Made by a program: the position numbers and the translations under genes. From Candidatus Thorarchaeota archaeon (lineage in GTDB: Archaea; Asgardarchaeota; Thorarchaeia; Thorarchaeales; Thorarchaeaceae): DNA of 18,372 bases. The DNA lies in contig JBHLRP010000016.1 in the NCBI GenBank assembly GCA_048882485.1, positions 1 through 18,372 on the forward strand. Reading direction: 5' to 3'. Below the pieces are notes generated by a model. The model did no database searches and was not told the DNA's origin. It worked only from the letters and a program-made list of their open reading frames with translations. Shown piece after piece: positions 990 through 18,372 of this stretch. The stretch's first letter is position 1. Each line of letters opens with the position of its first letter.

Positions 990-1136
990 ATGACGGACGA
1001 AGAGAAGGATGAGATTGTTGACTCTCAGAAGTTGAGCAAGAGAGACAAGCAGGAGATACAGGAGGGTGCATGCGTAAACTGCGTAGTCTTTGGAGTCATG
1101 TTCATGATTCTGTCAATTCTCGCGATGGTCCTATAG
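990..1136 (+). CDS. 48-aa tail-anchored membrane microprotein with juxtamembrane CxxC (below the ORF-track length cutoff)
   Basis: ATG at 990 to TAG at 1136: MTDEEKDEIVDSQKLSKRDKQEIQEGACVNCVVFGVMFMILSILAMVL. It has a good SD, a charged N-terminal half and a hydrophobic C-terminal helix ending at the stop, and it fills the gap between two genes. Confidence 0.75.
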   Translation: MTDEEKDEIVDSQKLSKRDKQEIQEGACVNCVVFGVMFMILSILAMVL

Positions 1137-1284: not shown

Positions 1285-2331
1285 GTGACGGACTTCGTGA
1301 CTGATCCTGGAGGGCCCACACCATTCGATAGGAGTGAAGGAGAAAAGGCCTTTGATGCAGGGAATGTTATAATGAGCTACACCAGAGGGGTCCTGTTGCA
1401 CCAGAGAATGAATTTAGATGATGCAATTAAGCTGCTTGAGAAATCTCTATCGTTGGCGGTCACAGGAGATATGTTTGATTATGCAATAAAAGCGCAGGTT
1501 CAACTTGCATCTGTTCATCTAAAGAGATACCAGATTCATGGTGATGAACGCGACTACAAAGCAGCATACAACTACTCTGAAAATCTAACTCAGATTGCAG
1601 AAGAACAGAATCTGGGGGCGGGGATTGTTGAGGCATTACTCCTTAGAGCAATCCTCAAGAGAACAGCGAAAGATATCATCGGAGCTAAGCATGATCTGCT
1701 TCGAGCAAAAGCCCTAGCGCTCGAAAACGAACTCACCACAGTTGTTAATGTGATTAATCGGGAGATAGATGAAGTACAAGGCCTTGAGAGGACCACCCTT
1801 GATGTCAATAGGAGTTTCGCTGAGACCCCAGATATCGAAGACAGTCTAGAGGAAGTACCAGGAGTCTTTGCTAGGCTAATGGATATGGAGTTGGCAAGAA
1901 AACCAATTGTTGTTCCAGTCAAGATCTATAGACTCGTCGTTATGCAACCAAGAGTTGGACTGCCAGTCTATACTTATGATTTTGACACTGAGATGGAAGA
2001 AGCGAGCTTTCTTGTTTATGGGCTATTATCTGCAGTCACATCTGTTGGTTCGGAGATCTTCCCCGATGCTGGACGCATTCGATCATTAGCTCATGAAGGG
2101 AAGACAGTCATTATGGAGCATGAAGGGGAGTATATGGGAGCCCTAATAGCTGAAAAGGAGAACTTCAGAGCAAGAATTTCACTTAGCAATTTCCTGAAGG
2201 GATTCAATGAAATATACCCATCTGAGAATTGGAATGGTGAAATGTTGAGTGATGAAGCAAAACAGGAAGCGGACTTCCTAATTGCAAAAACCTTCCGAAA
2301 CTTGGCCATAACAACCCAGAAAGGCGAATAG
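1285..2331 (+). CDS. TPR-like helical repeat protein with C-terminal longin-like domain (348 aa)
   Basis: aa ~28-165 form TPR-like helix pairs (YTRGVLL..DDAIKLLEKSLSLA; AQVQLASV..YKAAYNY; EALLLRAIL..GAKHDLLRAKALA). aa ~212-340 (nt ~1918-2304) follow the longin order beta-beta-alpha-beta-beta-beta-alpha-alpha: IYRLVVM..GLPVYTYDF..LVYGLLSAVTSVGSEI..IRSLAHEGKTVIME..YMGALIA..ARISLSNFLKGF..W.G..ADFLI. The GTG start is bounded by an in-frame TAG at 1273-1275. The fold is assigned by pattern recognition only. Confidence 0.75.
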   Translation: MTDFVTDPGGPTPFDRSEGEKAFDAGNVIMSYTRGVLLHQRMNLDDAIKLLEKSLSLAVTGDMFDYAIKAQVQLASVHLKRYQIHGDERDYKAAYNYSENLTQIAEEQNLGAGIVEALLLRAILKRTAKDIIGAKHDLLRAKALALENELTTVVNVINREIDEVQGLERTTLDVNRSFAETPDIEDSLEEVPGVFARLMDMELARKPIVVPVKIYRLVVMQPRVGLPVYTYDFDTEMEEASFLVYGLLSAVTSVGSEIFPDAGRIRSLAHEGKTVIMEHEGEYMGALIAEKENFRARISLSNFLKGFNEIYPSENWNGEMLSDEAKQEADFLIAKTFRNLAITTQKGE

Positions 2332-2332
2332 A

Positions 2333-5300
2333 TCAGCCTCTTGATGAACGAAATTCCATTTCTTTTTCAATCGACTCTAGAACTGTATCGATGCGGTCGA
2401 GTAACATGTCTTTCAACCGCAAACCAGCTGGCTCTGTGGGAGATTCCAACTCAAAAGCCTTAAAGAACATTCGTTTAGCTTGGGTTAATTCATCACTCAA
2501 TATCATTAAGACGTCATCACCCATATAGGAGATTTCCGCTGATAGGTCTCGCAGCCACTCAAGATGATTTACAATCTGTGCTCGCATTGTGCTGGAAATG
2601 CCAACATCCTCAAGTGATAGGAGCTCTTCAGGAGTCAGTGCATGTTCAAGTGTTGTGACTCGCCTTCGAGCTCGTGAAATGAATATAACAGCCGCAAGAC
2701 CTGCTATTCCGGCTGCTGATATGTAAAGCAACTCAGGTGGAAATTGCTGAGTAGTCCATACAACTTTTGGTATCAATCCTCTGTGATCTACCTCGACGAG
2801 TCCAAATCGGTCTCTGAACGACTCAATCATATACTCAACCAAACCAGCACTACTACTTTCGAAGGACACTTCCCATCGTTCATTATCTGGATTGTATATC
2901 GCACGTTTGCCATTTATGTTCACTAGAGTATTAGGATCTGTAATAGGTGCATCATCTGAAGAATAGCGTAGCTGGAAGTATATTGTAACATTGCTACCTA
3001 GGAGGACAGATAGCACTTCAGGTGGTTCTACCTCAACCACTAAATCTTCAGCTATATTTCTGCCTCTTACTCCAGCAGATGAAACATAGACACTATCAAA
3101 TTTCGCCGTACAGAAGATGACATCTTGATTTCTTAGTACTTGAATCTGTGAGGTGTCATCTTCGAATCCGTCCACAAAGTAGTCGAATTCACCAACAGTA
3201 TCATGAGATACTGAGATGAACCAGAATCCGCCCGAGGAGTCGTAGCTAGCTTGAGTCCCGTTTATCCATATTCTTCCTTTCAAGTCAGCAAAGAGCGTTT
3301 TGTCAAATACATAACGCATCCAAAATCTAACACGAATTGATGCTCCCAAATCACATCGTTCAGGATCGGTTTCAGTGTCAAAAATCTCGAGCTCATCCCA
3401 AATTACGTATGTTTGGTCATTGCTAATAACAACGTTGATTCCATGGATTCCACCGGTGATGGAATCTTCGCGAACAGTATATCCTCGTATTCCAATGAAG
3501 GACTGCACATATGTGGTGTCATTCAATTCCATAGTGCCATCAAAGGGAGTGCCATCGAAGGCATATACGGTGGAGTTTTCCACGGTGATTCTCATTCCCA
3601 AGCCTACTCGGTGATAGTTGACTGATAGGTCAACAATAAGACCATCCCAAATGATGCTCACTTCATCATTTGACAGAATGGTATTGATACCATAAGCGAA
3701 ATCAACAACGGACATTACTGTGAATCCATATCTCCCAACTGTATTCTGTACTAGAGACTGATTGAATATCAGGTTTCCATCAAATTGGCTGCCATCAAAG
3801 GCATACACAGCATCAATATCAAGGACTGTGAGTGCTGATTCATAGACATTTATTCTTTCATCGATGACATTCAGAGTAATATTCACTGCATCCCATATCA
3901 TGTATGGTGCGGAAATATCCATTTGGTAGTATGCCGCTCCAGCAACCTCCATATCTGTAACTAGCCAGTGGCGGTAAAGGACAGATAAACTGGAATTCGT
4001 GAAGGTTACCCACCCAGTTTCGTTAATGATATGCGGCGTTGAGTTCACGTATAATAGACCAGTTACTACTGGACTGCTGTTTTCACGCCATATACAATGG
4101 AAGTAAATGTAGACTAATGTCCCTATATTCACCCGATTTACCGGTCCATCTCCATCACTCACAAAAGCATCATCAACTTCGACTACGGGAGCATTAGTCC
4201 AAAATACCTCAATCATAAAAGTGTCGAATTCTGAAATTCCATATAGACTATCTTGGGCAGAAACCACGAGATATTGATATCGAGCATCTGGTGGTCCATT
4301 CCAAGTGTCACTGAAATTGCCATTCTTGGTTTCCGTTCCATTTCTTAATGTTTGAATTGTTAGACTCATAACTCTGCCGCCATCATATTGATAGGTTGCA
4401 GTCACGGTGAAATATACTAATTCATCATAGTATGCTACCGAGGAATCAGATACAATGATGACATTCATTTTGTCCCATATGATGGACATAGGACTCATTT
4501 GCTCGCCTATTTGAGTTAAACCATATAGAAGATCATTAACAGCCGACACTTGGAAGACGTAGCCAACTGGTGTAGAATAAACGAAACTATGATTCCAACG
4601 CAATAGTGCAGGATTCCAAGTCATTGCCGAGCCATTCATGTATAATGTGCCAAACGCACCCTGAAAAACCGAACCATCGTATTCATAGTCTGCTGTCACG
4701 TAGACTTGCCGTGTAGCACCTACATTCGTCCTTCCATCTACTTCATCAATCCAGTATGAGAGAATTCGCAGTCTATCCCAAATAACATAGTCTTCATCAT
4801 TGGTCCCGATTAGTGATATGCCGTAGGAGTCGCTAGAAGCAGAAGCCACGGAGTAGGCCCACCGACCCACAACTCCATGAACATTGACTGTATCATTGAG
4901 AGTCAAAATACCATCGTAAGGTAGGCCATCGTAGGCATAGACAGCACTTGCCTGAATCGAAGCAGACGAACCAACATCAATCCGTCTATCACTGATTGTG
5001 ATCGTTACTATCAACTCATCCCAGATGACGGTTTGAGATTGGGAGTTTTGGTTCACGCTTTGAATGCCATGAATGTTCCCGGAACAGGTCACAGAATCAA
5101 ATATGATACCCATGACCTCTGATTCTGTTCGAGTGTGGCGCCAGAGTCCTAGCCCAAGATGGCTGAAGCCGAATCCGTTGATAGTTACAATACCATCTTC
5201 AACTGGAGTACCATCATATTCGTAGCGCAGGATTGTATCAACCCGGATAGAATCGCCAACATTGTCTCGGGCGTCGTTTGCCGCCAAAGATAGGACAATT

Positions 5301-8300
5301 ATCTGATCCCATATACACCAAGTTTCATCGTTAGAGAGGATAGACATAATTCCATGGACATCATCACCCACTGCGCTCAGAACTGTGTAGCCCTTCTTTG
5401 TAGCAGCAGCTGAAATGAATACAGTATCATTGAGAAGAAGTGTCCCATCATAGATCGAATTGTCATAGTCATACCTTGCGCTGACAATAATTCCGGAGGC
5501 GTTTTGATTCACGTTAATTCTCTGATCTGGTGAATCTGTCATGGATATTCTAAGAGCGTCCCAAATACAGAATGTCGCATCATCAGTGGAAACTGCTGTG
5601 ATACCATGGACTCCACCAGAAATACTCTGGATGCCATACCCCTGCCTCTGAGGTGAGGCATAGGCAAACTGCGTGACATTCAATGAGAGTATGCCATCAA
5701 ATGGCGAGTTGTCATAATCATACACAGCGGTCACAAGGATGCCTGAAGCATTTGTTCCAATGTTGACCCGCTGGTCAAATGGATCGGTAATTATAATGGT
5801 CAGAGAATCCCAGATGCAATAGACCGCATCATTCAGATTGATTAGGGTAATTCCATGAGTATCATCACCAGCTGCGTTTAGAACTGTGTAACCCTTCTTT
5901 AATGCCACATCTGAAACGAATGAGGTGTCGTTTAGATTTAATGTCCCATCATAGCCCGAGTTGTCGAAGTCATATGTTGCTGTAACAACGATGCCAGATG
6001 CATTCTCGAAAATGTTAATTCTGTTGTCTATGGGACTTGCTATACTTATTGTCAAACTATCCCAGATGATACTCTGCGTCTGACTGTTCTGGTCAACCTG
6101 ATTGAGTCCATGTGATCCACCATTGTAGGCTACAGTGTTGTAGATTACTTCTTGTACTGATGACCTGCTAATCGTGATTCGCCATACGCCTCCGCCAACA
6201 TGACTAGCTGGGATGGAATTGATTGTGACTGCTCCATTTATGACAGGACTTGAGTCGGATGCGTAGATGAGAGTCACATCCAGATTGACATTAGCATTGA
6301 CATTGACTCTGGCATCATCTGGCGAATATGATTGAACCACTACTCTATCAGCAATATATGTACCCTGAACGGAAGTGTCGAAAAGATCTTGAGCTCCACT
6401 ACCCAATCCAGCTTCCACAGCTTTGATTGTTATCGTATCCAGGCCTGCTGAATCGTCAGCAAATGCGACCAAGCTGAAACTCCCTGAAACGAGCGTTGTA
6501 TCACTCCAGGGTCCAACACTAGAACCGTATCCTGAGCTCAACACCCAGACATCGGTTTCATTTGACAGAGGATTATCATCTCCCGAACCCAGATAAAGCA
6601 AAGTTCCACTCACAATGAAGCTCCCATCAAAGGGCCCGCGGTTTAACGTGCCAGAACCGTCGGAAATTGTTAGCCCTGAAATATCTAGGCGCGTTTCAAC
6701 ATCCCAATTCACTTCATAGTAGTCTTCGTCCGAATCAATACCGTCTGTGACATATTGCCTGATGTCTATGTCTGTTAAGTCAGAATGGTCCCAGTCTATC
6801 TTGATTATCCATGTCACTACAAGTTGATTGCCAGATCCTGAAGCTGATGACCATGAAGCTAATGCCACATTGCCTGCTCCTTGTTGAATTGAGAAAGAGT
6901 CGGTTGCAATAGTATATCTCAATGTCCATTCAGCTTGAATGCGAAGATCATCATATAGAGAGATTTCAACATATTGAAGCATATCATAGCCATTTCCATC
7001 ACTCACATTCGATGTTATCACATAGAATCTATACATAGCATAGAGATTGTCTGAATCGTCAGCATTTTCTAGCATCGAAAGCCCATCTGTTATGTTCACA
7101 GGAACTTCATTGGGAGCCTCAGACCAGGTGACTTTCTGGGTGGTAGTGATGAATGCGATTATTCCGAAATTGGTTTCAGAGCTGACAGAAGAAGCATTAT
7201 AATAGTAGATGGCATCAGAAGCTATGTTTCTGAAGAGAGACTTGTTGGAATCAGTGAAAGCGTACCAGTGGGTGGCATTGCGAGAGATGACCACCTCGTA
7301 GGTTGTGCAAGTTGCAGAATCATAGTCATATGTAACCGTGAGTGTGAAGTTGGCCTGCTGCCCATTGAATAGCGAAGCGCCATCTACTGCTATCTCAATT
7401 CTGAGTCTGTCCCAAATGCAGAATGTGGAATCAGGAGTCGATATGGCGGTTATGCCATAACCATCATCACCATTTGCGGTCAGGACTTCATAACCACGTT
7501 TGCCCACAGTAACATAGGCAAATTGAGTGTCGTTCAACACAAGAGTTCCATCGTAATTCGACCCATCATAATCATATACTGCACTCACTATTATGCCAGT
7601 CGCATTATCACCCACGTTCACTCGTAGGTCGGGAGGGTCAGTGATGGATATTGTAAGAGAGTCCCAAATGCAGTATGTATCGTCGTTTTGGCGAATTGCT
7701 GTGATTTCAAATGAATCATCGCCTGAGGCAAAGCTCACCGTGTAACCCTGCTTCTGCGCCGAGCCATAGCTGAATAAGGAGTTGTTTAAAACAAGTGTGC
7801 CATCATAAACAGCACCGTCAAAGTCATACCTGGCCGATACGACAATTCCTGATGCATTAGAATTCACGTCAATCCTTTGATCCAGAGGGTCAGTCATTTG
7901 GATGGTCAAGCTATCCCAAATGCAAGATGCTTCATCATTGACTTCGATCACAGTGATACCGTAAGTGTCGTCCCCACTAGCTGAACTCACATTATACCAG
8001 TGTTGTTGCGCTGACGCATAGCTGAATACCGTGTCATTCAGCATCAATGTTCCATCATAGGATGAGCCATCAAACAAGTATGTCGCTGTGGGGACTATAG
8101 ATGCAGTATCTCCAATGTTCAGTCTGTCATCAGCCACCGTGATTGTGATGGAAAGGGCATCCCAGATAATTGAAGGCTCAGCAATAGTCTGGATAGCACT
8201 TATGCCAAACTGTGTATCAGTGATTGTAGTCACTCCGAATGCGTAGCGGACTATGGTTGAGTATGTATGTAGCTGAGTCCAAACAAGATCCCCTGAATCC

Positions 8301-11300
8301 CAGGCCATGGCGGTCCCATTAAGAAACACAGTTCCCATGGCTCCAGTAAACAGGACACTATCATACTGTCGAATTACGATGGCTGTAATTTCCTGTATCG
8401 AGCCTAAATCACACCTGGAATCAGAAACTGAGTAGCTCAGCACACGCAGCTGGTCCCATATTACAGTAGCAATATCGTTTCTGCCAATCACAGTAATCCC
8501 ATAGGTATCTCCGCTTGCGGAATCCACAGTGTAAGACCTAGCACCAACAACTCCTTGTTGGAAGACTGTATCGTTAAGATCCAATGTTCCATCATACGGC
8601 GTACCATCATAGTCGTAAACAGCCGACGCAGAAACAGAAGCAACATCTCCCACATCTATTCTATAATCAATAGCGGAGATGGAGACAGTTAGAGAGTCCC
8701 AAACGCATGACACGATCATATTCTGTCGAATCGCTGTGATGCCGAAAGAATCTCCAAAAGCAGAAGCAACTGTGTAGCCCCGACGTCCAGCTGAAGCTTG
8801 CTGAAAGATAGTATCATTTAGTTGAAGAGTTCCATCATATGCGGAACCATCATAGTCATAGATGGCTGTAGGAACAATAGATGCAATTGTCCCGGTATCG
8901 ATCCTACTATCACTCACTGTAATGGTAATCGTCAGCGAATCCCAAATAATACCTTGACTCTGTGAGTTCTGGTCTACTGCTGTTATGCCATGTTGATTCG
9001 CAGCGGCAGACACTGTGTTGAAAGTTACGAATTGAGCTGTGCTTCGCATTTCAGTAAAGCCCCAAACTCCATTGGATTCAGAATAAATCGCGCTAATGCC
9101 ATTAATCCAAACAGATCCGTCGATGACAAATGAATTGTCAAAGTTGTAGATTAGAGTGACATTGCAGGAACATCCAGTATTGATGTCAATCCTTGTATCC
9201 TCAGCTGAATAGGAAATGACCACTATCTGATCCCAGATTATCGTAGTGTTGGACGTAGTAACAACCCATTGTGTGAGGCCATAGACCAATTCAGAGGCTA
9301 TGATAACATGATATCCTATTCTTTGGACAGATGCAGAGGTTTCCTGATAACGCCACCGAGTAGCCCCAGCATCCCACGCCAGAATCTTGGAGCCATTAAG
9401 TGCAGCAGAAAATCCCTTTGTAATATCTATCTCAACACCATCATATTGGTATCGTGCCTTCCACCAAGTTTCACCTACTGAATTCGTGTCGATTCGCCCA
9501 TCGACAACACCAGATTGGTAGAACTCTATTCGATCCCAGATTATATCCTGGGATTTTGAATTCAAGTTCAGTAGGTTTATGCCATATGTATCCTCATAGG
9601 CATTGGAACTGTTTACGTAATACCGCCACAAACCAACTTCTGATCTAGACGGTTGATATTCAAAGTGGTCAATGCTCCAAATCATCACATTGTTGTCCAT
9701 GTAGAGAATGTCGTCCGCGCCTAGTGGATGATTATCAAACTCAAGCACAGCGGTTACTATTATTTCAGCTGGCGATCCGTAGTCAATGCGGTCATCAGTA
9801 GTAGAAGTGGTCTGAATTAGAATTCTATCCCAGATCACATCCGTCCAAAGGACATTTGGATTCAGAGAAGAAATATCATGCGTAACTTCATTGGCCAGGG
9901 TCGAATTGACATGGAACCTCCAGAGACCGACTGCTATCTTAGAGGTCTGATACTCAAAATGGTCAGTGTTCCAACTCATCAGAGTGTCATCTAGGTAGAG
10001 TGTATCACTCGATGTCAAAATGTGGCCATCAAACTCGAGTTGTGCGGTGACAGAAACCGTAACTGTGGTACCAAGATTCACTCGATTGTCATTCGCTGTG
10101 GTTGTGGTGATCTGAATACGGTCCCATATCTGTGCCACACTAGTTCCTGCTAGATTAACGTATGAGATTCCATAGGTATCTTCGAGGGCATTTGATGCAT
10201 TTACAAAGAATATCCATTCGCCAACTTGAGCAAACTGTGGCTCATACTGGAAGTATGATCCGAGCCATATCATCTGAGTATTATTCATGTAAAGAAGATC
10301 ATCCACGCCGAGGAAGTGGCTATCAAACTCGAGTTGGGCGGTGACTCGAATATCAGCTTGAGTGTCATAGTCTATGCGCCCATCCTGCGTGGTGGTGGTG
10401 AGAACCAGAATTCTGTCCCAAATTTGGTCTACTGATTTGCCATCAATGTTCACCAAGGAAATTCCATATGTCGTTTCCATAGCATTAGAGGTGTTGACAA
10501 AATAATTCCAAGAACCCACTTCATTTCTTAATGGTTGATACTGGAAATAACTTGAAACCCATGTCATTTCGACATCATCCATGTACAGGATGTCACCGGA
10601 CGCAAGTGGATGATCATCATACTCCAATAGAGCAGTTACTTGGATATCTGCCGCAGAACCGTAGTCAATTCTATTGTCCTGAGTTGAAGTTGTGATTATT
10701 CTGATGCGGTCCCAAATGACGCTGGTAGCTTGGCTGTTGAGATTCACCAATGTTATGTCATGTGTTGATTCCAATGCGCCAGTGGAATTCGCAAAGTAGG
10801 TTAGAATATCCACAATCAAGTATGCTCCAGTTGCAAGTTCGAAGTGATCAACATTCCAAGCCATTAGTGTGTCATTGGCATAGAGAGCGTCTGCTGAACC
10901 AAGCAGATGACCATCATATTCAAGTTCAGCAGTCACGCTGATTGTGGTCGAGGTTCCATAATTGATTCGATCGTCAGCTGTTGTTGTGGTGAGGATTCTG
11001 ATTCTGTCCCATATGACACTAGATTCCCTACCATTCAGGCTCAACTCTGTGATGCCATAGGCACTCATTGTACTGGAGTTCACATAGTATGTCCATAAAC
11101 CAACAGCAGATTGCGATACATCAAGCTCAAACCAGGAGTTTCCACCATCCCACGACATAGCTTGACCCGCTAAAACGACGGTGTCGCTAGAGCCAAGGAG
11201 AGTGTTATCATACTCAAGCATGAGAGTGACTCGGATTTGGACAAGATCATCAACATTGACTCTTTCATCATCAGCCACTGTCGATTGCACTAAAATCCTA

Positions 11301-14300
11301 TCCCAAATGACATCCTGGAAGTTACCATTCTGGTTGACGGAAGATATTCCATAGTCCGATTCCATCGCATTTGTGAGATTGGCAAAGTATCTCCAGGAAC
11401 CTACGCCTGCTTTTGTCCTTGGCAACTCGAACCTCAGTTCCACCACGTCCCAGGTCATCTGGACTCCATCCATGAAGATTGTATCCGAGGAACCCAGCAA
11501 ATGGCCGTCATATTCCAACTGAGCTGTGATCCTCAATTCTGCTATAGAATTGATATTCACTCTGCTATCATTGACAGTAGTTGATGTGATCAAGATTCGG
11601 TCCCAGATTATTGATGTGTCGAATGTAGTCTGAGTCCAAGCCGTCAGCTCATAGGATGTTTCCAACGCGGAAAGAATAGCATATTGCTGGAGCTCGACTC
11701 CTGCCTTTGATTCAGAGTATATCCAGTAAGTACCATTCCAGACCAGAAGTTTGGAGCCTGTGAGCTGCGCTGTCAATCCTGACGTGATTGACACGTCATC
11801 ATAGTCATAGCGCGCTGTCCAATAGGTGGTTCCGGTGGATCCAGCATCAATTCGTCCATCATCTACTCCTGACAAGTAGAACTCAATACGATCTGAGATG
11901 AATGTGCCTGTAGCTGATGCGGTATAGTATAAGTCCGCTCCTGAAGGGCCATCTCCTTCAGCCACCACCTTGAAAGCGTAAGTGTTTACCCGAACCGAGG
12001 ATGACGACCCAATACCTGTTGCTGCTAGCACTCCAAGACCATCCACATTTCCTGACCAAGAACCAGAGATGTCGTGCAAGACCCAAAAGTCCGTTTCATT
12101 TGCCAAGGGGAAGAGTGCTGAAGAATAATAAGTCAAAGCTCCTGTAGCCACTAGGTCAGCGGTATCTACGTTCCCACGATCATCATCTAGACTTGGCAAG
12201 GTTGAATAATCCAAACGAGTTTCTATATCCCAATCAGATTCATACCAATCACTTGCCGTAGAAAATGTATTACTAACGAATTGCTTGGTATCAACATCTA
12301 CAATGTCAGGATGATTCCATGAGATTTTGATATACCATGTGATGTTCAGCCATATGCCAGACTGCTCATAGGTGCAAGGTCCCAAAGCAATGTACATTGA
12401 CCCATTCGTGACAGAGAATGAGGAATTACTTCTGACGAATGTGACAGTCCAGTAGTTAGTTCCTCTGTCATCACTAAAGAGAAGGAGGCGTATGAGTCGG
12501 ATATCTTGATAGCCGTTCTGATCCGAAGCATTTGAAGTGATTTTATAGTAGCGTAGTCGTGCATACATGTTGTCAGTATCATCGGGATTGAGCAGGTTTG
12601 GTGGGGCTTCATTGACGGGAACTATTGGAATATATGATGTCCAATTGACGAGCTCAGTGTTTGTGATGAACAGAGTGATGTCATACAAGGTTTCCGAAAC
12701 AACCAAGGATGCATTGTATAGGTAGACCAAATCACTATTCGTGTCATTGAATAGCGTCGCATTCAGATATGTGAATGCCAACCAGTCAGTGTTATTCCTT
12801 GCACAGATTATCTCGTACGTGGTGCATTCTGTTCCATCAGACTCAAAGCTGACACTGAGTGTAAAATTGACCTGCTGTTCGCTTAGAACCAGCTCGGCAT
12901 CTGCCTGGATGTCAATCAACAGTCGATCCCAAATGACATCCAAGATGTTCGAATCCAGGTTTACAACAGAAATGCCGAAGTCAGTTTCGTTGGCATTGGT
13001 TGAGTTCACGAAGTATTTCCGCAGACCCACGGAAGATTGGGAAGTGCTATGAACGAAGGCGCTTTGAGGTGCACTCCAGACCATGGATAAATCCTCCATA
13101 TAGAGAGTATCTCCAGAACCAAGAAAGTGGTCTCCATTTCCAGTATACTCCAGTTTCGCAGTGACCTGTAGTTCAACTGTATCTCCGACATTGACTCGAG
13201 AATCATCAGCTGCTATCGAGAGGATGAGTATCCTGTCCCAAATGACTTCAACGCTCAATGAATTCAGATCAACTTCACTTATCTCATAGGTAGTTTCAAG
13301 GCTGGAATTGACAAAGAAGGTCCATTTTCCAACTGTTGTGAACGCCAAGTCGAGGATGAAATGACTATTCCCTCCATCCCACGTCATAGCTGAATCGTTG
13401 ACGAATACAGAGTCCCCACTACCAAGATTTGTGTGGTCAAACTCGAGCCATAATGTTACTTGGATCTGGGCAGTCGAACCTACATCTAGGTGGTTGATGT
13501 CAACGTTGGTAGTTTGGACGGTTATTTTGTCCCAGATGATGCTAGTATTGGCTGCTGTCTGAATGAATCGTGTAAGACCGTATGTCGACTCGGAAGCACT
13601 CAATACTCCATATCCCATTGATTGGACTGTGGAAAATGATTCAGAGTAGTCCCACCTAGTAGTGACACCATTCCAAGAAAGCGCCTTGCTACCATTCAGT
13701 GACGCGCTGAGTCCGGTGGTGATCTCAAACTGGTCGTAGGCGTACCTTGCTCTCCACCATGTAGTACCGACCGCATCGATATTGATTCTGCCGTCTTCAA
13801 CACCGGATGAAAAGAACTCAATCTCATCCCATATAATCGATACATTGGAAGCTGTTTGAACCCATGCTGTTAGACCATAGGTTGTTTCAGAGGCAGAAGC
13901 AATCCCATACCCTACAAGTTGCACAGAGTTTTTTGTTTCAGAGTAGTCCCAACGAAGGTCAGAAGAGTTCCAATTGAGTGCTTTAGAGCCATTCATTGAT
14001 GCAGTAAGAATGGCTCCTGTTATCTCAATTCTATCATATTCATACCTTGCGTTCCAGTAGACGAAGTCACTATCATCTACATCAACCCGGCCATCAACTA
14101 CCCCGCTCTGATAGAACTCTATCCTGTCCCAAATCTGGCTAACACTATTGCCGTCGAGGAATAGAGCCGAAATCCCATAGGTTGCCTCATCCGCATTTGA
14201 GGAGTTGACATAGAAATCCCAAATTCCAACCATAAAGAATTGAGGCTGAAGTCGGAAGTACGAGCCAGCCCAAGTCATCACGGTGTCGTTCATGTATAAG

Positions 14301-17300
14301 ATATCAGCAACACCTAGAGGATGGCCATCGAATTGCAATTCCGCTGTAACTCGCAAGTCCGCCGACGACCCGAAGTCAATTCTGCCATCTTGCGTTGTAG
14401 TTGTAACAATCACAATTCGATCCCATATTTGATCGACTTCCGCACCCGCAACATTGACCACCGTTATCTGAAATGTATCTTCCAAAGCTCCAGTAGAATT
14501 CACATAGAACTTCCACTCGCCCACCTGAGAGAACTGAGGTTGCAGTCGGAAATATGGGCCCACCCATGTGAGCCCTGTAGTGTTCATGAAAAGATTATCA
14601 CCCAATCCAAGTGGATGGCCATCATACTCTAGCTCAGCTGTGACTCTCAGATCTGCAGCTGCATTAGTATCGATTCGTGAGTCTTGAGAGGTAGTACTCG
14701 TTATGAGAATGCGGTCCCAAATCACATTCGCTGAAATTGGGTTGGATTGCACGAGGGTTATTCCAGAATCTGTTTCCAGAGCCCCGGATGCATTCACATA
14801 GTACCTGAGTAACCCAACTATAGAGTAGGAGCCAGTTTCGAGGTAGAAGTGATCCGTATCCCATGTCATCACAGTATCATTCATTCGCAATGCGTCGCCA
14901 CTGCCCAAGAAGGTGCCATCATACTCGAGTTGAGCTGTGACATTAACTGTGGTGCTTGTACCATAGTCGATTCGACCGTCAGAAGCCACTGTGGTGATAA
15001 TCAGAATACGGTCCCAGATTTGGTCTATCTGCCGCCCGTCAATATTGACCACAGCAATATCGTAAGTATTCTCCATTGCTCCAGTTTCATTGACAAAGAA
15101 TGTCCACAGCCCTACCTGCGTGAACAGAGGCTGAAGCCTGAAGTAAGGACCAACCCAAGTCATAGCCGTGCCGTTCATGTAGAGAGTATCTCCCACGCCA
15201 AGGAGATGGCCGTCGTATTCCAACTCTGCAGTCATCCTAATGTCTGCAGTTGTCCCATAGTCAATTCTTCCATCCTGCGTGGTGGTTGTGATAATCCGTA
15301 TGCGATCCCAAATGATTGTTGTATTGCTTGCTGTCTGCACCCAGCCAGCGAGTCCGTGTGTAGCGTCGTAGGCTGAGGCTACTGAATATCCAATCGCCTG
15401 AACCGTACTCATAGTTTCTTGAAATGTCCAATATGAGCCATTCCACGAAAGAGTCTTAGTGCCATTTAGCGCCGCGCTCAGTCCGCCAGTTATTGAGAGA
15501 GAGTCGTACTGATATCTGACACTCCACCAAGTGACACCACTCGAGTCGACGTCAATTCTGGAATCGTCTACTCCAGACTGATAGAATTCGATTCTATCAG
15601 CGATATATGTGTCAGCAATGCTCGAGAAAAGAAGATCAGTACCCCCAAATCCTGCACCCTCCTGAACAACCTTGACTGTGTAAGTGTCTTGGCCAACTTC
15701 ATCATCTGCGTAGCAGGTAACATTGAAGAGCCCTGAAACAAGAGATGAATCAGGCCAAGGCCCTAAACTGGTTCCATACTCAGGGCAAGAAACCCACACA
15801 TCCACTTCCGACGATGGGGGAGTGATAGCTGAACCATGGTATGTAACAGTGCCAGTGGTGAAGAACTGACTATCGAGATCCCCTCTATCTATCGTGCCTA
15901 AATTATCATCAGTGGCTATGCCCGCTATGTCCAGCCGAGTTTCTATGTCCCAGTCGACTTCATACCAGTTCGTGTCATTCTCTGATTTACTATCAACGAC
16001 GACACACTCAACATCACTTCCTGTGATATCTGGATGGATCCATTCAATTGAGACTTGGAATGTAATATCAATATCATTCCCCGCTTTCATGGCAGTTGAA
16101 GAAACAGTATCAAGAGTGATGTAGTTTGCTGGATCGGAGAACTCAGCAAAGCTATCAGTGTCCTCATTATACTCGATTGTCCAGTAGAGTGTGAATCTGT
16201 CGTCTGAGTATAGAGAGAGCCGCATGCTTTGGATGTCACCATACCCGTCTTGGTCAGAAACATTTGCAGCTATTAGATAGTCCCTGGCCTTGGCATACAT
16301 GTGGCTACCATCATCAATGTTGCCTACCGAGGGCTTTTGATCGTTCGATGGAATATTGTTCCAAGTGTGAAGAAGAGTTGCATCAATGGACCATTGTGAT
16401 GACACCGCATCGCCTGCTTCCAGCCCGCCCTTGAACCTGATGGTGAATGTTGCAGACGTTAGCCAGGTTTCCACGCTTATGTTGTTCCATGAGTCTGCCT
16501 GCAAGTCAGCGAAAAGACTGACCCAGGTAAGCCCATCCCAGACTTCAACTGCTATGTCTTCTGAATCGGCATTCCCTGCATAGATGCAAAGAAACTCATT
16601 ATTATTATCAAATTCAGCTGCAGTCCATTGAACCTCCAAGTCTAGTTCATAGTTGTAGGTTTGATCTGTCCATGTATGAAGAGTAATGAGATCTATCTCC
16701 CAAAGTCCTTGCTCTGCATCACTTGTGTTATCTGCACCCTGGAGCCTGACGGTGTAGCTGACTGAATCAAGGCCTGTGGCGGTAAGATTGGTCCAGCCGA
16801 TCGAGGTAATCGTTCCCAAGCTGAGCCAGCCGACTCCATTCCAATAGCTGACATTAAGACCCTCAGTCCCAGAAATCGATCCAATGTTGATACAGACTTC
16901 CTCATTGACTTCATCATTGTCTGCTCCACTCCAGGCGTATTCGAGATCAGCCTCATAATTGACGACTTTTGGAGAGCTAACGCCAATCCGTAGATGATCA
17001 ACGTAGGCATAGTCTGCGCCACCTGTCTTATAGAATACCAGCCTAATGCGAAGCGAATTGACTTGTTGTTGAGAGAGAGTGCCTACTATCGTCAGGTTGT
17101 CGTATTGCCTGGCTGTATGCTGCGCGACTCTGCCCAGCAAAGTGCCGACTCCTCCGGTGGTATCATAATAGACATCAAATCCATCATCCGCCGCACCATC
17201 CAGATTCCAACAGTACAATGACACATTTACAGTGAGGGCTCCCGACAATGTCGTATTAGGAAGTCCCCACCAGCCTCCTTGAGATCCCGGAGCCTTTGTA

Positions 17301-17845
17301 TAGATGTAGTTTGCTGGCTCGTCTTGTGAACTAAGGTAGGGAGAAGTACCAACTGTTGTGATTCCGCTATATGTGGCATCGTAGGAGTCTGTATCAAGCC
17401 AGACTGACTGATAGGGATCCCCGACATCTGTTTCTTGAATAGTCATGAACTGGGTGTCAACAGTGGTTCCTTGTGCATTCGCAGGATTCATTTCGACCCC
17501 CACATCTGGTGAAGAGTCAACATCGCTCGCATAACTATCATAGTCATCCTCAGCATCCGTAGTAATCGGTGCTGTATTCTCTTCAGCAAGAATGTCATAG
17601 GTAGCATCAGGTCCAGATTGTTGATTAGCAAAATTCGAGTGACTTCCTATGTATCCAGCACCATCGACATCTGACAGATTATTGGCTGCGAATTGTTCGA
17701 GCGATGATGCAAGAGTGTATTCTGTCTGGGTCACTATCAAACTTGGCTCATACGTTGGAGGGTATGAAGGATTAGTACTAGTGCCCAGCAGCATAGCCAC
17801 TATACAACCTGTGAGGACAATGACTAAGGGTCCTCTCCTCTTCAT
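2333..17845 (-). CDS. Giant (5170 aa) single-pass cell-surface glycoprotein / adhesin-like protein with tandem Ig-like IWD repeats and a cytoplasmic domain
   Basis: Uninterrupted 15.5-kb ORF with a strong SD, an N-terminal basic + hydrophobic signal, about 40 beta-rich repeats, many N-x-S/T sequons, a C-terminal TM helix followed by RARRR, and a 114-aa tail. Confidence 0.95.
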   Translation of the reverse strand: MKRRGPLVIVLTGCIVAMLLGTSTNPSYPPTYEPSLIVTQTEYTLASSLEQFAANNLSDVDGAGYIGSHSNFANQQSGPDATYDILAEENTAPITTDAEDDYDSYASDVDSSPDVGVEMNPANAQGTTVDTQFMTIQETDVGDPYQSVWLDTDSYDATYSGITTVGTSPYLSSQDEPANYIYTKAPGSQGGWWGLPNTTLSGALTVNVSLYCWNLDGAADDGFDVYYDTTGGVGTLLGRVAQHTARQYDNLTIVGTLSQQQVNSLRIRLVFYKTGGADYAYVDHLRIGVSSPKVVNYEADLEYAWSGADNDEVNEEVCINIGSISGTEGLNVSYWNGVGWLSLGTITSIGWTNLTATGLDSVSYTVRLQGADNTSDAEQGLWEIDLITLHTWTDQTYNYELDLEVQWTAAEFDNNNEFLCIYAGNADSEDIAVEVWDGLTWVSLFADLQADSWNNISVETWLTSATFTIRFKGGLEAGDAVSSQWSIDATLLHTWNNIPSNDQKPSVGNIDDGSHMYAKARDYLIAANVSDQDGYGDIQSMRLSLYSDDRFTLYWTIEYNEDTDSFAEFSDPANYITLDTVSSTAMKAGNDIDITFQVSIEWIHPDITGSDVECVVVDSKSENDTNWYEVDWDIETRLDIAGIATDDNLGTIDRGDLDSQFFTTGTVTYHGSAITPPSSEVDVWVSCPEYGTSLGPWPDSSLVSGLFNVTCYADDEVGQDTYTVKVVQEGAGFGGTDLLFSSIADTYIADRIEFYQSGVDDSRIDVDSSGVTWWSVRYQYDSLSITGGLSAALNGTKTLSWNGSYWTFQETMSTVQAIGYSVASAYDATHGLAGWVQTASNTTIIWDRIRIITTTTQDGRIDYGTTADIRMTAELEYDGHLLGVGDTLYMNGTAMTWVGPYFRLQPLFTQVGLWTFFVNETGAMENTYDIAVVNIDGRQIDQIWDRILIITTVASDGRIDYGTSTTVNVTAQLEYDGTFLGSGDALRMNDTVMTWDTDHFYLETGSYSIVGLLRYYVNASGALETDSGITLVQSNPISANVIWDRILITSTTSQDSRIDTNAAADLRVTAELEYDGHPLGLGDNLFMNTTGLTWVGPYFRLQPQFSQVGEWKFYVNSTGALEDTFQITVVNVAGAEVDQIWDRIVIVTTTTQDGRIDFGSSADLRVTAELQFDGHPLGVADILYMNDTVMTWAGSYFRLQPQFFMVGIWDFYVNSSNADEATYGISALFLDGNSVSQIWDRIEFYQSGVVDGRVDVDDSDFVYWNARYEYDRIEITGAILTASMNGSKALNWNSSDLRWDYSETKNSVQLVGYGIASASETTYGLTAWVQTASNVSIIWDEIEFFSSGVEDGRINIDAVGTTWWRARYAYDQFEITTGLSASLNGSKALSWNGVTTRWDYSESFSTVQSMGYGVLSASESTYGLTRFIQTAANTSIIWDKITVQTTNVDINHLDVGSTAQIQVTLWLEFDHTNLGSGDSVFVNDSAMTWDGGNSHFILDLAFTTVGKWTFFVNSSLETTYEISEVDLNSLSVEVIWDRILILSIAADDSRVNVGDTVELQVTAKLEYTGNGDHFLGSGDTLYMEDLSMVWSAPQSAFVHSTSQSSVGLRKYFVNSTNANETDFGISVVNLDSNILDVIWDRLLIDIQADAELVLSEQQVNFTLSVSFESDGTECTTYEIICARNNTDWLAFTYLNATLFNDTNSDLVYLYNASLVVSETLYDITLFITNTELVNWTSYIPIVPVNEAPPNLLNPDDTDNMYARLRYYKITSNASDQNGYQDIRLIRLLLFSDDRGTNYWTVTFVRSNSSFSVTNGSMYIALGPCTYEQSGIWLNITWYIKISWNHPDIVDVDTKQFVSNTFSTASDWYESDWDIETRLDYSTLPSLDDDRGNVDTADLVATGALTYYSSALFPLANETDFWVLHDISGSWSGNVDGLGVLAATGIGSSSSVRVNTYAFKVVAEGDGPSGADLYYTASATGTFISDRIEFYLSGVDDGRIDAGSTGTTYWTARYDYDDVSITSGLTAQLTGSKLLVWNGTYWIYSESKAGVELQQYAILSALETSYELTAWTQTTFDTSIIWDRILITSTTVNDSRVNINSIAELRITAQLEYDGHLLGSSDTIFMDGVQMTWDVVELRFELPRTKAGVGSWRYFANLTNAMESDYGISSVNQNGNFQDVIWDRILVQSTVADDERVNVDDLVQIRVTLMLEYDNTLLGSSDTVVLAGQAMSWDGGNSWFELDVSQSAVGLWTYYVNSSTMSAYGITELSLNGRESSVIWDRIRILTTTTADDRINYGTSTTISVTAELEYDGHLLGSADALYANDTLMAWNVDHFELATGAYLIVDILTYFANSTGALESTHDITLVNLNSQATSVIWDRIRIITTSTQDNRIDYGSAADIQVTALLEYDDHPLASGDILYMDDVEMTWVSSYFQYQPLRNEVGSWNYFVNTSNAMETTYGISLVNIDGKSVDQIWDRILVLTTTTQDGRIDYDTQADIRVTAQLEFDSHFLGVDDLLYMNNTQMIWLGSYFQYEPQFAQVGEWIFFVNASNALEDTYGISYVNLAGTSVAQIWDRIQITTTTANDNRVNLGTTVTVSVTAQLEFDGHILTSSDTLYLDDTLMSWNTDHFEYQTSKIAVGLWRFHVNSTLANEVTHDISSLNPNVLWTDVIWDRILIQTTSTTDDRIDYGSPAEIIVTAVLEFDNHPLGADDILYMDNNVMIWSIDHFEYQPSRSEVGLWRYYVNSSNAYEDTYGINLLNLNSKSQDIIWDRIEFYQSGVVDGRIDTNSVGETWWKARYQYDGVEIDITKGFSAALNGSKILAWDAGATRWRYQETSASVQRIGYHVIIASELVYGLTQWVVTTSNTTIIWDQIVVISYSAEDTRIDINTGCSCNVTLIYNFDNSFVIDGSVWINGISAIYSESNGVWGFTEMRSTAQFVTFNTVSAAANQHGITAVDQNSQSQGIIWDSLTITITVSDSRIDTGTIASIVPTAIYDYDGSAYDGTLQLNDTIFQQASAGRRGYTVASAFGDSFGITAIRQNMIVSCVWDSLTVSISAIDYRIDVGDVASVSASAVYDYDGTPYDGTLDLNDTVFQQGVVGARSYTVDSASGDTYGITVIGRNDIATVIWDQLRVLSYSVSDSRCDLGSIQEITAIVIRQYDSVLFTGAMGTVFLNGTAMAWDSGDLVWTQLHTYSTIVRYAFGVTTITDTQFGISAIQTIAEPSIIWDALSITITVADDRLNIGDTASIVPTATYLFDGSSYDGTLMLNDTVFSYASAQQHWYNVSSASGDDTYGITVIEVNDEASCIWDSLTIQMTDPLDQRIDVNSNASGIVVSARYDFDGAVYDGTLVLNNSLFSYGSAQKQGYTVSFASGDDSFEITAIRQNDDTYCIWDSLTISITDPPDLRVNVGDNATGIIVSAVYDYDGSNYDGTLVLNDTQFAYVTVGKRGYEVLTANGDDGYGITAISTPDSTFCIWDRLRIEIAVDGASLFNGQQANFTLTVTYDYDSATCTTYEVVISRNATHWYAFTDSNKSLFRNIASDAIYYYNASSVSSETNFGIIAFITTTQKVTWSEAPNEVPVNITDGLSMLENADDSDNLYAMYRFYVITSNVSDGNGYDMLQYVEISLYDDLRIQAEWTLRYTIATDSFSIQQGAGNVALASWSSASGSGNQLVVTWIIKIDWDHSDLTDIDIRQYVTDGIDSDEDYYEVNWDVETRLDISGLTISDGSGTLNRGPFDGSFIVSGTLLYLGSGDDNPLSNETDVWVLSSGYGSSVGPWSDTTLVSGSFSLVAFADDSAGLDTITIKAVEAGLGSGAQDLFDTSVQGTYIADRVVVQSYSPDDARVNVNANVNLDVTLIYASDSSPVINGAVTINSIPASHVGGGVWRITISRSSVQEVIYNTVAYNGGSHGLNQVDQNSQTQSIIWDSLTISIASPIDNRINIFENASGIVVTATYDFDNSGYDGTLNLNDTSFVSDVALKKGYTVLNAAGDDTHGITLINLNDAVYCIWDSLTIIITDPFDQRVNIGTNASGILVTAVYDYDNSPFDGILSLNVTQFAYASPQRQGYGIQSISGGVHGITAVSTDDATFCIWDALRISMTDSPDQRINVNQNASGIIVSARYDYDNSIYDGTLLLNDTVFISAAATKKGYTVLSAVGDDVHGIMSILSNDETWCIWDQIIVLSLAANDARDNVGDSIRVDTILRYEYDGTPVEDGIVTINGFGFSHLGLGLWRHTRTESEVMGIIFDSVTCSGNIHGIQSVNQNSQSQTVIWDELIVTITISDRRIDVGSSASIQASAVYAYDGLPYDGILTLNDTVNVHGVVGRWAYSVASASSDSYGISLIGTNDEDYVIWDRLRILSYWIDEVDGRTNVGATRQVYVTADYEYDGSVFQGAFGTLYMNGSAMTWNPALLRWNHSFVYSTPVGYVFQVSAVNDLLYGLTQIGEQMSPMSIIWDKMNVIIVSDSSVAYYDELVYFTVTATYQYDGGRVMSLTIQTLRNGTETKNGNFSDTWNGPPDARYQYLVVSAQDSLYGISEFDTFMIEVFWTNAPVVEVDDAFVSDGDGPVNRVNIGTLVYIYFHCIWRENSSPVVTGLLYVNSTPHIINETGWVTFTNSSLSVLYRHWLVTDMEVAGAAYYQMDISAPYMIWDAVNITLNVIDERINVYESALTVLDIDAVYAFDGSQFDGNLIFNQSLVQNTVGRYGFTVMSVVDFAYGINTILSNDEVSIIWDGLIVDLSVNYHRVGLGMRITVENSTVYAFDGTPFDGTMELNDTTYVQSFIGIRGYTVREDSITGGIHGINVVISNDQTYVIWDELEIFDTETDPERCDLGASIRVRFWMRYVFDKTLFADLKGRIWINGTQASYDSSGGFWFISVSHDTVGEFDYFVDGFEDDTSQIQVLRNQDVIFCTAKFDSVYVSSAGVRGRNIAEDLVVEVEPPEVLSVLLGSNVTIYFQLRYSSDDAPITDPNTLVNINGKRAIYNPDNERWEVSFESSSAGLVEYMIESFRDRFGLVEVDHRGLIPKVVWTTQQFPPELLYISAAGIAGLAAVIFISRARRRVTTLEHALTPEELLSLEDVGISSTMRAQIVNHLEWLRDLSAEISYMGDDVLMILSDELTQAKRMFFKAFELESPTEPAGLRLKDMLLDRIDTVLESIEKEMEFRSSRG
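2678..2731 (-). other. C-terminal transmembrane helix of the giant protein
   Basis: LLYISAAGIAGLAAVIFI followed by the positive-inside cluster SRARRR. Confidence 0.9.
2735..7102 (-). repeat. Super-block 3: node domains A3 (7102-6692) and B3 (6691-6347), 7 IWD repeats, cap (4471-4187), then 5 membrane-proximal repeats
   Basis: Third copy of the node (ADDSDNLYAMYRFYVITSNVSDGNGYD...VNWDVETRLD), followed mainly by short SLTI...YDYDG..YDGTL.LNDT repeats. Confidence 0.85.
7103..12619 (-). repeat. Super-block 2: node domains A2 (12619-12218) and B2 (12217-11891), 16 [I/V]WD repeats, cap repeat (7408-7103)
   Basis: Node A2/B2 is homologous to A1/B1 (DD...MYA..R.Y.I..N.SD..GY.D......L..DDR ... W.H.D....D ... 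YE.DWDIETRLD). Confidence 0.85.
12620..16351 (-). repeat. Super-block 1: node domains A1 (16351-15938) and B1 (15937-15596), 9 IWD repeats, cap repeat (12925-12620)
   Basis: Protein-level repeats with consensus IWD-RI.I.TT..D.RI(D/N).G....VTA.LE(Y/F)DGH.LG..D.L.MN...M.W. Confidence 0.85.
16361..17701 (-). other. N-terminal head (aa 49-495): three beta-sandwich/jelly-roll-like domains, two of them homologous
   Basis: Duplicated segments SDVD..G....AN.Q...D......E (aa 49-91 and 98-141) and NYE.DLE..W....D..NE..CI..G...E...V..W.G..W......W.N......T.R..G.....D.....W.ID...LHTW (aa 296-392 and 398-495) flank a unique domain (aa 146-290). Confidence 0.65.
17780..17845 (-). other. Signal peptide or N-terminal membrane anchor of the giant protein
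   Basis: MKRRG n-region followed by hydrophobic PLVIVLTGCIVAMLLG. Confidence 0.8.
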
Positions 17846-18099: not shown

Positions 18100-18372
18100 C
18101 TATTGATCCTCGTCATCTTCTCCGAATCGCTTCGGCCTGCCGAGACGTCGGGAGTCGTCTACTCTAAGCCTATCAGGATCAGGCGGTGCACCATATCGTT
18201 CCTCTTTAGGCTCTTTAATCTCTTCAACGACCTCCCTATCGAGGTCTTCTTCGCGAAATTCTTTGCCTTCTTCTCGCTCCTCTTTCACACGCTCAGCAAC
18301 ACGCTCAGCTCTCTCGAACATGACATAGTAGAGCGTTGTGAAGATTGCTACCAGCGGGAAGGCCAGCAGCTT
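18100..18372 (-). CDS. 3' end of a membrane protein (TM helix plus highly charged C-terminal tail); starts beyond the right edge
   Basis: The frame is open to the window edge: KLLAFPLVAIFTTLYYVMFERAERVAERVKEEREEGKEF...GEDDEDQ*. The ORF-track start at 18321 is an internal Met. Confidence 0.8.
   Translation of the reverse strand, partial: KLLAFPLVAIFTTLYYVMFERAERVAERVKEEREEGKEFREEDLDREVVEEIKEPKEERYGAPPDPDRLRVDDSRRLGRPKRFGEDDEDQ

Follow-up and report, generated by a model that had tools for sequence, protein, structure and literature searches.

A gene for a giant adhesin-like rod, whose cytoplasmic tail probably docks an adaptor encoded by the neighboring gene, was found in the window, by which we mean the whole 18,372-nucleotide stretch of DNA that was analyzed. 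The sequence-only reading of this stretch had suggested that the tail connects the protein to cytoplasmic partners. Genetic linkage, tree congruence, and a predicted-complex score of 0.83 now make such a connection probable, with the product of the adjoining gene as the partner. Giant Ig/FN3 adhesin-like rods are already known from Asgard archaea; what is new is the conserved tail with its linked adaptor.

Anatomy of the giant protein

The reading frame from 2333 to 17845 on the minus strand is uninterrupted across its full length of 5170 aa and is the sole giant ORF of the window (Table 1). A purine-rich stretch upstream of the gene stops 5 nt short of the ATG. Hydropathy detected just two hydrophobic segments, at residues 3 to 25 and 5037 to 5059; the signal peptide was called from hydropathy and the transmembrane (TM) helix from hydropathy together with a helix in the AlphaFold model. 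The signal peptide is probably of the Sec type, and Tat and lipoprotein signals were rejected by inspection, as the orthologues conserve no twin-arginine motif and no lipobox. The protein contains 94 N-x-S/T sequons, compared with 54 +/- 6 expected by chance, and 0 of these lie after the TM helix or in the tail, so that the excess outside and the absence inside fit a type I topology. The exact motif IWD occurs 35 times (mean, 1.06, and maximum, 6, in 500 shuffles).

The layout is one of three runs of repeats with nodes, a head, a TM helix, and a tail of 113 to 114 aa. The signal peptide, head, roughly 40 repeats, six nodes, single TM helix, and 114-aa tail read earlier from the letters were all borne out, with the count of 40 repeats now fixed by a profile. 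The probable Asgard origin also held, since the tail homologues carry the name Ca. Thorarchaeota. None of the three findings that the earlier reading had listed as refuting it was obtained.

Pairwise identity among the repeats averages 29% and reaches 65% at most, and orthologues from another genus have runs of equal length; these observations argue that the gene is real and rule out a collapsed assembly repeat. The last 17 and 13 repeats and the node spacing recur in four genomes of that genus (G384, G366, G388, and G385), and the complete 10/17/13 pattern was seen in G384 and G366. Elsewhere the tail-bearing giants vary in size: the shortest, of 2006 aa, has a single run of ~10 repeats, and the longest, of 6620 aa, has runs of ~30, 11, and 16, for totals of up to 57 repeats. 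In G012, a 385-aa allele lies at the same locus beside the partner gene, with nearly the whole ectodomain missing: the signal peptide plus part of the N-terminal segment are fused to the last repeat, TM helix, and tail. This short allele may be a natural deletion or a misassembly.

Table 1. Features of the giant gene and its neighbors in the window (positions in nucleotides; residue ranges refer to the encoded protein)
Feature	Positions	Strand	Basis
48-aa ORF with C-terminal hydrophobic segment, upstream of partner gene	990..1136	+	Locus comparison
Partner gene, convergent; 348-aa product with TPR-like solenoid and longin-like domain	1285..2331	+	Stop codons 1 nt apart
Helix 17-40 of partner, predicted contact with tail	1333..1404	+	Complex model
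Longin-like domain of partner, ~residues 212-340	1918..2304	+	Transitive, below Pfam cutoff
Giant type I membrane glycoprotein, 5170 aa	2333..17845	-	ORF and hydropathy
Cytoplasmic three-helix bundle, residues 5085-5169; helix 2 is predicted docking site	2339..2593	-	AlphaFold model and alignment
Single TM helix, residues 5039-5057, then basic stop-transfer residues	2675..2731	-	Hydropathy and AlphaFold helix
IWD repeats 28-40; last three modeled as Ig-like beta-sandwiches	2756..6355	-	Profile and pLDDT 90-98
Node pair 3	6356..7123	-	Domain comparison
IWD repeats 11-27, long (97-101 aa) and short (81-84 aa) types	7124..11899	-	Repeat profile
Node pair 2	11900..12640	-	Domain comparison
IWD repeats 1-10, long type, last a cap variant	12641..15604	-	Repeat profile
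Node pair 1 (A, 143 aa, Ig V-like; B, 107 aa, Ig-like)	15605..16354	-	Model pLDDT mostly >90
Two paralogous all-beta head domains, residues 292-394 and 395-497	16355..16972	-	Mutual match E 1e-17; pLDDT mostly 60-91
Head jelly-roll domain, residues 143-291, CBM-like	16973..17419	-	pLDDT 50-70; structure matches
N-terminal segment, residues 40-142	17420..17728	-	pLDDT <50; homologues in P0001, P0020, P0007, P0028
Signal peptide, ~residues 1-23, basic n-region and hydrophobic h-region	17777..17845	-	Hydropathy

The IWD repeat is an unnamed Ig-like stalk module

A profile built from the protein itself delimited exactly 40 IWD units of 81 to 117 aa each, in runs of 10, 17, and 13. Three pairs of node A and node B (six domains) lie at residues ~498 to 747, 1742 to 1982, and 3584 to 3830. 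In the AlphaFold model, the last three repeats are all-beta domains (pLDDT, 90 to 98), and nodes A and B are Ig-like and well modeled. By the measure of a two-sheet beta-sandwich of ~80 to 100 aa that matches solved Ig-like structures, the modeled repeats fall within the Ig-like superfold, as had been anticipated. Their best structural matches are FdeC (Z, 9.2; rmsd, 7.3; 249 aligned) and invasin (Z, 8.7; rmsd, 9.6; 245 aligned), at an identity of ~10%. Fibronectin fragments matched the nodes and repeats together (Z, 11.0; rmsd, 12.6; 342 aligned), nearly tied with other Ig-like stalks, and a ribophorin domain matched the Ig-like part of the model (Z, 9.0; rmsd, 2.8; 99 aligned). The top Foldseek match, a translocon/OST subunit that we take to be ribophorin II, had a TM-score of 0.22 and was set aside as a reflection of the Ig, TM, and helix layout.

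Scans of the whole protein against Pfam and NCBIfam returned no family at the cutoff, in agreement with the earlier reading, which did not recognize a named family in the repeat. Big_1/2/3, FN3, PKD, cadherin, and I-set gave no match at an E value of 1 or lower with the whole protein or of 0.1 or lower with the 40 single repeats, and a sequence search of the PDB with the repeat profile gave a best E value of just 0.067. A faint likeness to DUF7738 (PF24880) was detected on repeats 29 to 38, at 22 bits (E, 2e-4) against a gathering cutoff of 24.6; several relatives pass that cutoff through summed weak partial matches over ~60 of the 103 positions. No paper describing DUF7738, and no description of the IWD repeat, was found in the literature, in which subscription journals were poorly covered for the latter.

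The IWD profile matches proteins in 52 of 85 other genomes of the host family. Beyond that family it gives a strong match in one genome of another family and weak matches in 10 of 22 genomes of a further Asgard family; in the largest Asgard family sampled, just 2 of 135 genomes were matched (E, ~1e-3). In a library clustered at 50% identity, it matches 935 proteins. Among the best 150 of these relatives, 111 have a TM segment after the repeats, and in 65 of the 111 the tail is no longer than 35 aa; the other tails are of several unrelated kinds, among them acidic disordered tails and tails that resemble a winged helix. Beta-helix or peptidase M6 domains are present in some relatives. These findings make the IWD repeat a general stalk module, and its presence does not imply a receptor, given how many TM-bearing relatives end in a short tail. 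When the search of genomes with a repeat HMM that had been called for was run, the absence of a named family at the cutoff stood, and the repeat proved to be widespread, mostly in proteins with short tails.

The head as a candidate binding tip

In a weak model (pLDDT, 50 to 70), head domain 143-291 matched the carbohydrate-binding module CBM15 (1gny; Z, 8.3; rmsd, 3.3; 129 aligned) and the CBD of a cyanophage tail fiber (8ke9; Z, 8.3; rmsd, 2.9; 120 aligned). Z values of about 8 may reflect just a common fold, and the jelly-roll likeness is held at low confidence; the domain is a candidate ligand-binding tip. It is patchy, being found in some relatives only. The head domains are 72 to 74% identical across genera. 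The ESM Atlas returned only unnamed clusters for the head, with low recognition. A nested arrangement, with the N-terminal segment completing later head domains, was not supported, as residues 30 to 150 stayed at a pLDDT of <50.

These observations bear on the possibility, which we hold to be real if clearly the lesser one, that the giant is a structural glycocalyx or tether filament without a specific ligand, which would space, coat, or tie extensions and vesicles while the tail and adaptor only anchor or sort it. The 94 sequons, the variation in run length (from ~10 to 57 repeats, in proteins of 2006 to 6620 aa), and the patchy head tip are consistent with such a filament, as are the thin 3-nm extracellular fibers, several hundred nanometers long, by which a cultured Asgard archaeon keeps its vesicles tethered to the cell body (10.1101/2025.07.22.663070); that report does not assign these fibers to the family described here. 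However, the head domains are well kept between genera, one of them resembles CBM folds, and other members of the family display enzyme or beta-helix domains on the same stalk, so that the stalk is normally a display device. The filament reading is compatible with docking of the tail and differs only in what the outside does.

A folded, conserved tail

The tail was modeled as three long helices (pLDDT, 80 to 95) after a low-confidence linker from the TM helix, and 12 positions are invariant across 25 sequences, so that the folded and conserved tail posited earlier is upheld. Its conservation of ~70% is no higher than that of the distal stalk (~70%). The TM segment is poorly conserved (26 to 65%). 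The fold is a generic three-helix bundle whose best Z of 10.2 lies below the 13 needed for helical bundles. A likeness to spectrin repeats and GAT domains (Z of 10.2 or less; rmsd, 2.0 to 2.9; 87 aligned) was rejected because any three-helix bundle gives such values, and the ESM Atlas gave no usable match for the tail. In helix 2 the residues are spaced as in a TPR helix B (A67, an aromatic residue at 71, A74, and often P79/80), and the best PDB sequence match of the tail profile is an engineered TPR protein (E, 6.6e-5).

The tail family was found in 20 of 86 genomes of the host family and was not found in the other 314 genomes sampled across the phylum. Stand-alone proteins of 137 to 145 aa consisting of a TM segment and the tail exist without an adjoining partner, which indicates that the tail is a mobile module with some unpaired copies; altogether 9 of 26 tail copies have no visible adjoining partner, 2 of these at contig ends. 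In the host genome, nine other giants have in common a different long conserved tail family, and two of the host-genome giants carry a longin-like domain themselves.

The tail gene travels with a truncated gene for a TPR- and longin-like protein

TPR_1 and TPR_12 match all 14 members of the partner family weakly (best E, 2.5e-4), and consensus TPR proteins head the PDB list for the partner. Its C terminus has no direct match to a longin family. Partner relatives in the same alignment match Fuz_longin_1 (E, 7e-4), and an in-genome paralogue (found at an E of 1e-13) matches Longin (E, 8e-5) and Fuz_longin_1 (E, 2.5e-4), all below the cutoff; we therefore call the C terminus longin-like, a transitive assignment below the cutoff. 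The partner is a truncated form of a widespread Asgard TPR-longin family of ~680 aa, from which it lacks ~370 N-terminal residues, and the short subfamily is sharply set apart (E of <1e-78, with the next at >1e-37). The idea that the tail is the lost N-terminal part of the long family was rejected, since the profile-profile probability against 20 long proteins was 0.3% for the tail versus 100% for the partner.

The short partner occurs at 18 loci in 17 genomes. The tail gene adjoins it at 17 of these, and the 18th runs off the contig on that side; a metagenome contig supplies one further pair. The linked pairs span four genera, and their flanks change from GNAT genes in the host genus to permease/MFS genes in another and to glycosylation clusters or another giant elsewhere. 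One genome (G366) has two pairs, from different clades, and in another (G355) the genes still adjoin though they are codirectional. The 48-aa ORF upstream of the partner gene is conserved in same-genus loci and was not found in the retrieved loci of other genera. Of the 86 genomes of the family, both genes are present in 16, the tail alone in 4 (2 cut by contig ends), the partner alone in 1 (cut), and neither gene in 65; within one genus, 7 genomes contain both, 1 the tail only (at a contig end), and 20 neither. These co-occurrence counts are descriptive because the genomes are related and many are incomplete. The tail and partner trees have their main clades in common and are largely congruent, and pairwise identities correlate with those of the partner at a rho of 0.92 for the tail and 0.55 for the last Ig domain, values drawn from kin that are not independent. 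As the giant and partner genes of the window lie on opposite strands, they are not cotranscribed.

The patchy distribution, the several genomic contexts, and the occasional tandem giants would also suit cargo carried by a mobile element, for instance an aloposon with its giants Otus and Ephialtes. That origin is very improbable and largely refuted for this copy. No tRNA was found on this contig or in ten loci; no MinD/ParA gene, integrase, or second giant lies beside this copy; and several same-genus genomes have these flanks in common. The aloposon features of tandem giants, a downstream tRNA site, and an upstream MinD/ParA set are thus all missing at the locus.

Predicted complex of tail and partner

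The tail and partner were predicted to form a complex with a score of 0.83 (runs at 0.83, 0.83, and 0.81), compared with 0.00 for the best of three controls, all of them unrelated proteins that are not described as TPR proteins. Contacts agreed by at least 97% between runs, and the partner had a pLDDT of at least 77. Of 80 solved complexes, 58 reach this mark, as do 2 of 110 mismatched pairs; these counts are a rough guide here, since the alignments used were our own. In the predicted interface, partner helix 17-40 packs against tail helix 2 (residues 56 to 78) and part of helix 1. Among the interface residues, E20, A22, G26, and Y32 of the partner (16 pairs) and W41 and E63 of the tail are invariant, and the tail interface columns are conserved at 0.75 versus 0.63 for the remaining columns. 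The TPR-like character of tail helix 2 suggests a mechanism in which the tail would substitute in trans for the helix lying before the start of the partner in the long family.

That same character leaves room for a less specific explanation. The predicted contact may equal generic TPR stacking, since helix 2 resembles a TPR helix B and the best match of the tail is an engineered TPR protein. On such an account the giant is an ordinary adhesin-like protein whose tail only self-associates or anchors, and the TPR-longin gene hitchhikes beside it, as the convergent orientation, the stand-alone tails without a partner, the TPR-like helix, and the generic nature of three-helix bundles (best Z of 10.2, under the required 13) would allow. 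We judge this unlikely, because the genes stay side by side in all 17 of the visible cases, through changes of flank, a duplication, and an inversion, and because the score of 0.83 versus 0.00 falls on invariant residues.

Proposed working of the tail-adaptor pair

We favor, as the probable reading, an adhesin-like rod whose tail docks the neighboring adaptor. From its sequence, the giant would be secreted and would carry N-glycans, with a single TM helix as its anchor. The stalk, made up of 46 Ig-like domains of which 6 have a modeled fold, would form a rod of ~170 to 220 nm, as estimated from 46 stalk and three head domains at 3.5 to 4.6 nm each, and the rod would hold the variable jelly-roll head. 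That the head binds glycans, on surfaces, on cells, or on the organism's own vesicles, has a little less than an even chance. Inside the cell, the three-helix bundle is predicted to pack its TPR-like helix onto the first, exposed helix of the truncated TPR-longin partner. Such docking, predicted for a pair whose genetic linkage is observed, would tether the longin domain beneath the stalk.

Longin domains occur in eukaryotic sorting and GTPase-regulating complexes, for example, in subunits of the adaptor (AP) complexes. By this precedent the longin domain could pair with other longin/roadblock proteins and with small GTPases, and the rod would in this way be placed, sorted, or anchored in the membrane, a suggestion that we offer tentatively. 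In its most complete form, the proposal is that a 200-nm glycan-binding rod completes the TPR solenoid of its adaptor in trans and so couples adhesion to membrane organization controlled by small GTPases; taken as a whole, this is doubtful.

A true signaling receptor, in which ligand or tension at the head acts through the TM helix to switch the adaptor and hence a small GTPase, as in integrins or cadherins, is quite improbable. It would suit the succession of ectodomain, TM helix, and folded tail with a dedicated longin-type adaptor, and Asgard longins are abundant and fused to GTPase or signaling domains (10.1101/2020.10.19.343400). However, among the loci compared, no conserved GTPase, kinase, or effector gene lies beside the pair, which makes placement or anchoring likelier than switch-like signaling. 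The TM helix is moreover poorly conserved (26 to 65%), the linker from it to the bundle is of low confidence in the model, and a jointed 200-nm stalk would probably make a poor conformational wire.

Comparison with known systems

Like invasin/intimin/FdeC, SiiE, and LapA, the giant is a rod built of Ig-like domains in tandem and has a distal module, in its case a candidate for binding. These bacterial Ig-stalk adhesins are anchored by a beta-barrel or secreted by a type I system and are not known to have a domain in the cytoplasm. The adhesin-like proteins of methanogens and the single-pass surface glycoproteins of archaea consist of a signal peptide, a repeat stalk, and a C-terminal TM segment with basic residues, and most IWD relatives resemble them. 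Whereas these archaeal proteins end a few residues past the membrane, the subfamily described here has a 114-aa folded tail and a linked adaptor. By analogy, the layout is similar to those of the cadherin-catenin, integrin-talin, and Ig-CAM systems, in which a surface rod with one TM helix has a tail bound by a helical-repeat adaptor. The likeness to cadherins and Ig-CAMs drawn by the sequence-only reading does not go beyond the generic fold, and neither Pfam nor the PDB gave a sequence match to them; the tail forms a folded bundle instead of a linear motif, and the resemblance is not one of homology.

The closest published counterparts are Asgard proteins. A 5416-aa adhesin-like protein with 54 domains and a reach of up to ~250 nm has been published for an Asgard archaeon (10.1101/2025.07.22.663070). 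LOKIASV2_19760 of Nerearchaeum marumarumayae resembles the giant in its >5000 aa, ~50 tandem beta-sandwich domains, and Asgard host, and the class as a whole resembles it in having a signal sequence and a membrane span, with a predicted reach of ~200 to 250 nm (10.1101/2025.07.22.663070). The giant has the signal, tandem beta-sandwiches, and membrane span by which this adhesin-like class is recognized in Nobs et al. The domains of the class are described there as FN3 subtypes, whereas the IWD giant has no FN3 family match, a contrast drawn from descriptions, and the portion of the report available mentions no tail partner, whereas the IWD giant has a linked adaptor (10.1101/2025.07.22.663070). 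The suggestion that such a layout sets the giant apart from other prokaryotic giants was overstated, in view of the published 5416-aa protein and of the nine other long-tailed giants in the host genome.

Otus and Ephialtes of the aloposons are likewise Asgard proteins, of 3000 to 6000 aa, yet their loci contain a tandem giant, a tRNA site, and a MinD/ParA gene and the locus of the giant has none of the three (PMC8813620). The same study points out numerous unrelated giant genes in Asgard archaea, to which it gives no function (PMC8813620), and giant Asgard genes without an assigned function were noted again elsewhere (PMC11573180). No characterization of the inner ends of Asgard giant surface proteins was found in the literature, nor was any description of the tail-adaptor pair, in a search that covered subscription journals poorly.

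Implications for Asgard surface proteins

The giant rod by itself is of moderate interest, because its kind has been published. The IWD repeat is an unnamed and widespread Ig-like family (935 clusters at 50% identity) that merits a Pfam entry. Asgard longin/roadblock proteins comprise 130 orthologous groups (10.1101/2020.10.19.343400), and most of these proteins have no known partner or place in the cell. The locus names a specific small pair, tail (114 aa) and partner (348 aa), both predicted to be soluble and with their contact residues predicted, that can be put directly to the test. If the proposed working is true, the pair would constitute an Asgard receptor-adaptor system without prior description, analogous to cadherin-catenin or cargo-adaptor pairs, and it would be one of several independent Asgard routes by which giant surface proteins are wired to longin domains. 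If the tail and partner bind, an adaptor fold of the eukaryote type would be tied to a prokaryotic surface adhesin, which would bear on a link between adhesion and membrane trafficking before eukaryotes.

Tails of the giants and their relatives

Nine other giant proteins (1839 to 6555 aa) of G000, the genome that holds the window, several of them arranged as tandem pairs, have in common one conserved cytoplasmic tail family of 116 to 413 aa, which is unrelated to the tail of the giant at 2333-17845 (see table). Among relatives carrying the IWD repeat, P0127, P0128, and P0137 have tails of 300 to 500 aa that start with a winged-helix-like segment, matched by HTH_24 at an E value of 0.02.

The giant's own tail domain was found at four loci in stand-alone proteins consisting of a TM helix and the tail. 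The residues of the helix predicted to dock onto the TPR-longin partner are altered in these proteins, and the TPR-longin neighbor is absent beside all four. The same domain is internal (positions 248-363) in an 806-aa protein of another genome of the family, G355; this protein is multi-pass in appearance and sits within a glycosylation gene cluster.

Variant alleles and gene neighborhood

At the orthologous locus of G012, the giant's allele is stalkless and encodes 385 aa, reflecting either a natural deletion or a misassembly. In the G366 orthologue a frameshift, either real or a sequencing error, separates the head from the stalk.

Upstream of the giant lies a multi-pass gene, a homologue of which is likewise upstream in G012. 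A 100-N scaffold gap falls inside this gene, and both of its sides bear the same short sequence, which is probably an assembly artifact. Two divergent GNAT acetyltransferase genes lie beside the giant and its TPR-longin partner in the giant's own genus only; between them and the TPR-longin gene is a 48-aa ORF, 58 to 81% conserved across same-genus loci.

Two further large G000 proteins (1930 and 1588 aa) have a longin-like domain from the broad family to which the partner's also belongs, and a TPR plus longin-like family of ~680 aa (L059 to L078) is widespread in Asgard archaea, with matches in 138 of 400 genomes.

Coordinates of features (C, G000 contigs; L, fetched loci)
Feature	Location	Remarks
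G000 giants with the shared other tail	C19:891-20555; C16:48224-64345; C2:109802-122287; C19:20549-32530; C76:1527-11339; C2:122346-131888; C1:183912-191687; C1:191642-199408; C44:5903-11419	
Stand-alone TM + tail proteins	L010:1501-1920; L091:10001-10438; L093:5627-6040; L094:2471-2893	137-145 aa
Internal tail domain protein, G355	L056:8023-10440	
Stalkless allele, G012	L008:1501-2655	
Frameshifted orthologue, G366	L041:531-1928 + L041:1921-15966	
GNAT genes	window 3-260 (-); 436-921 (+)	divergent
48-aa ORF	window 990-1136 (+)	C-terminal hydrophobic segment
Upstream multi-pass gene	window 18100-18372; L001:1101-2633	510 aa
Scaffold gap	contig 18373-18472	
Large G000 proteins with longin-like domain	L088:5905-8001 (C12); L089:1-1935 (C1)
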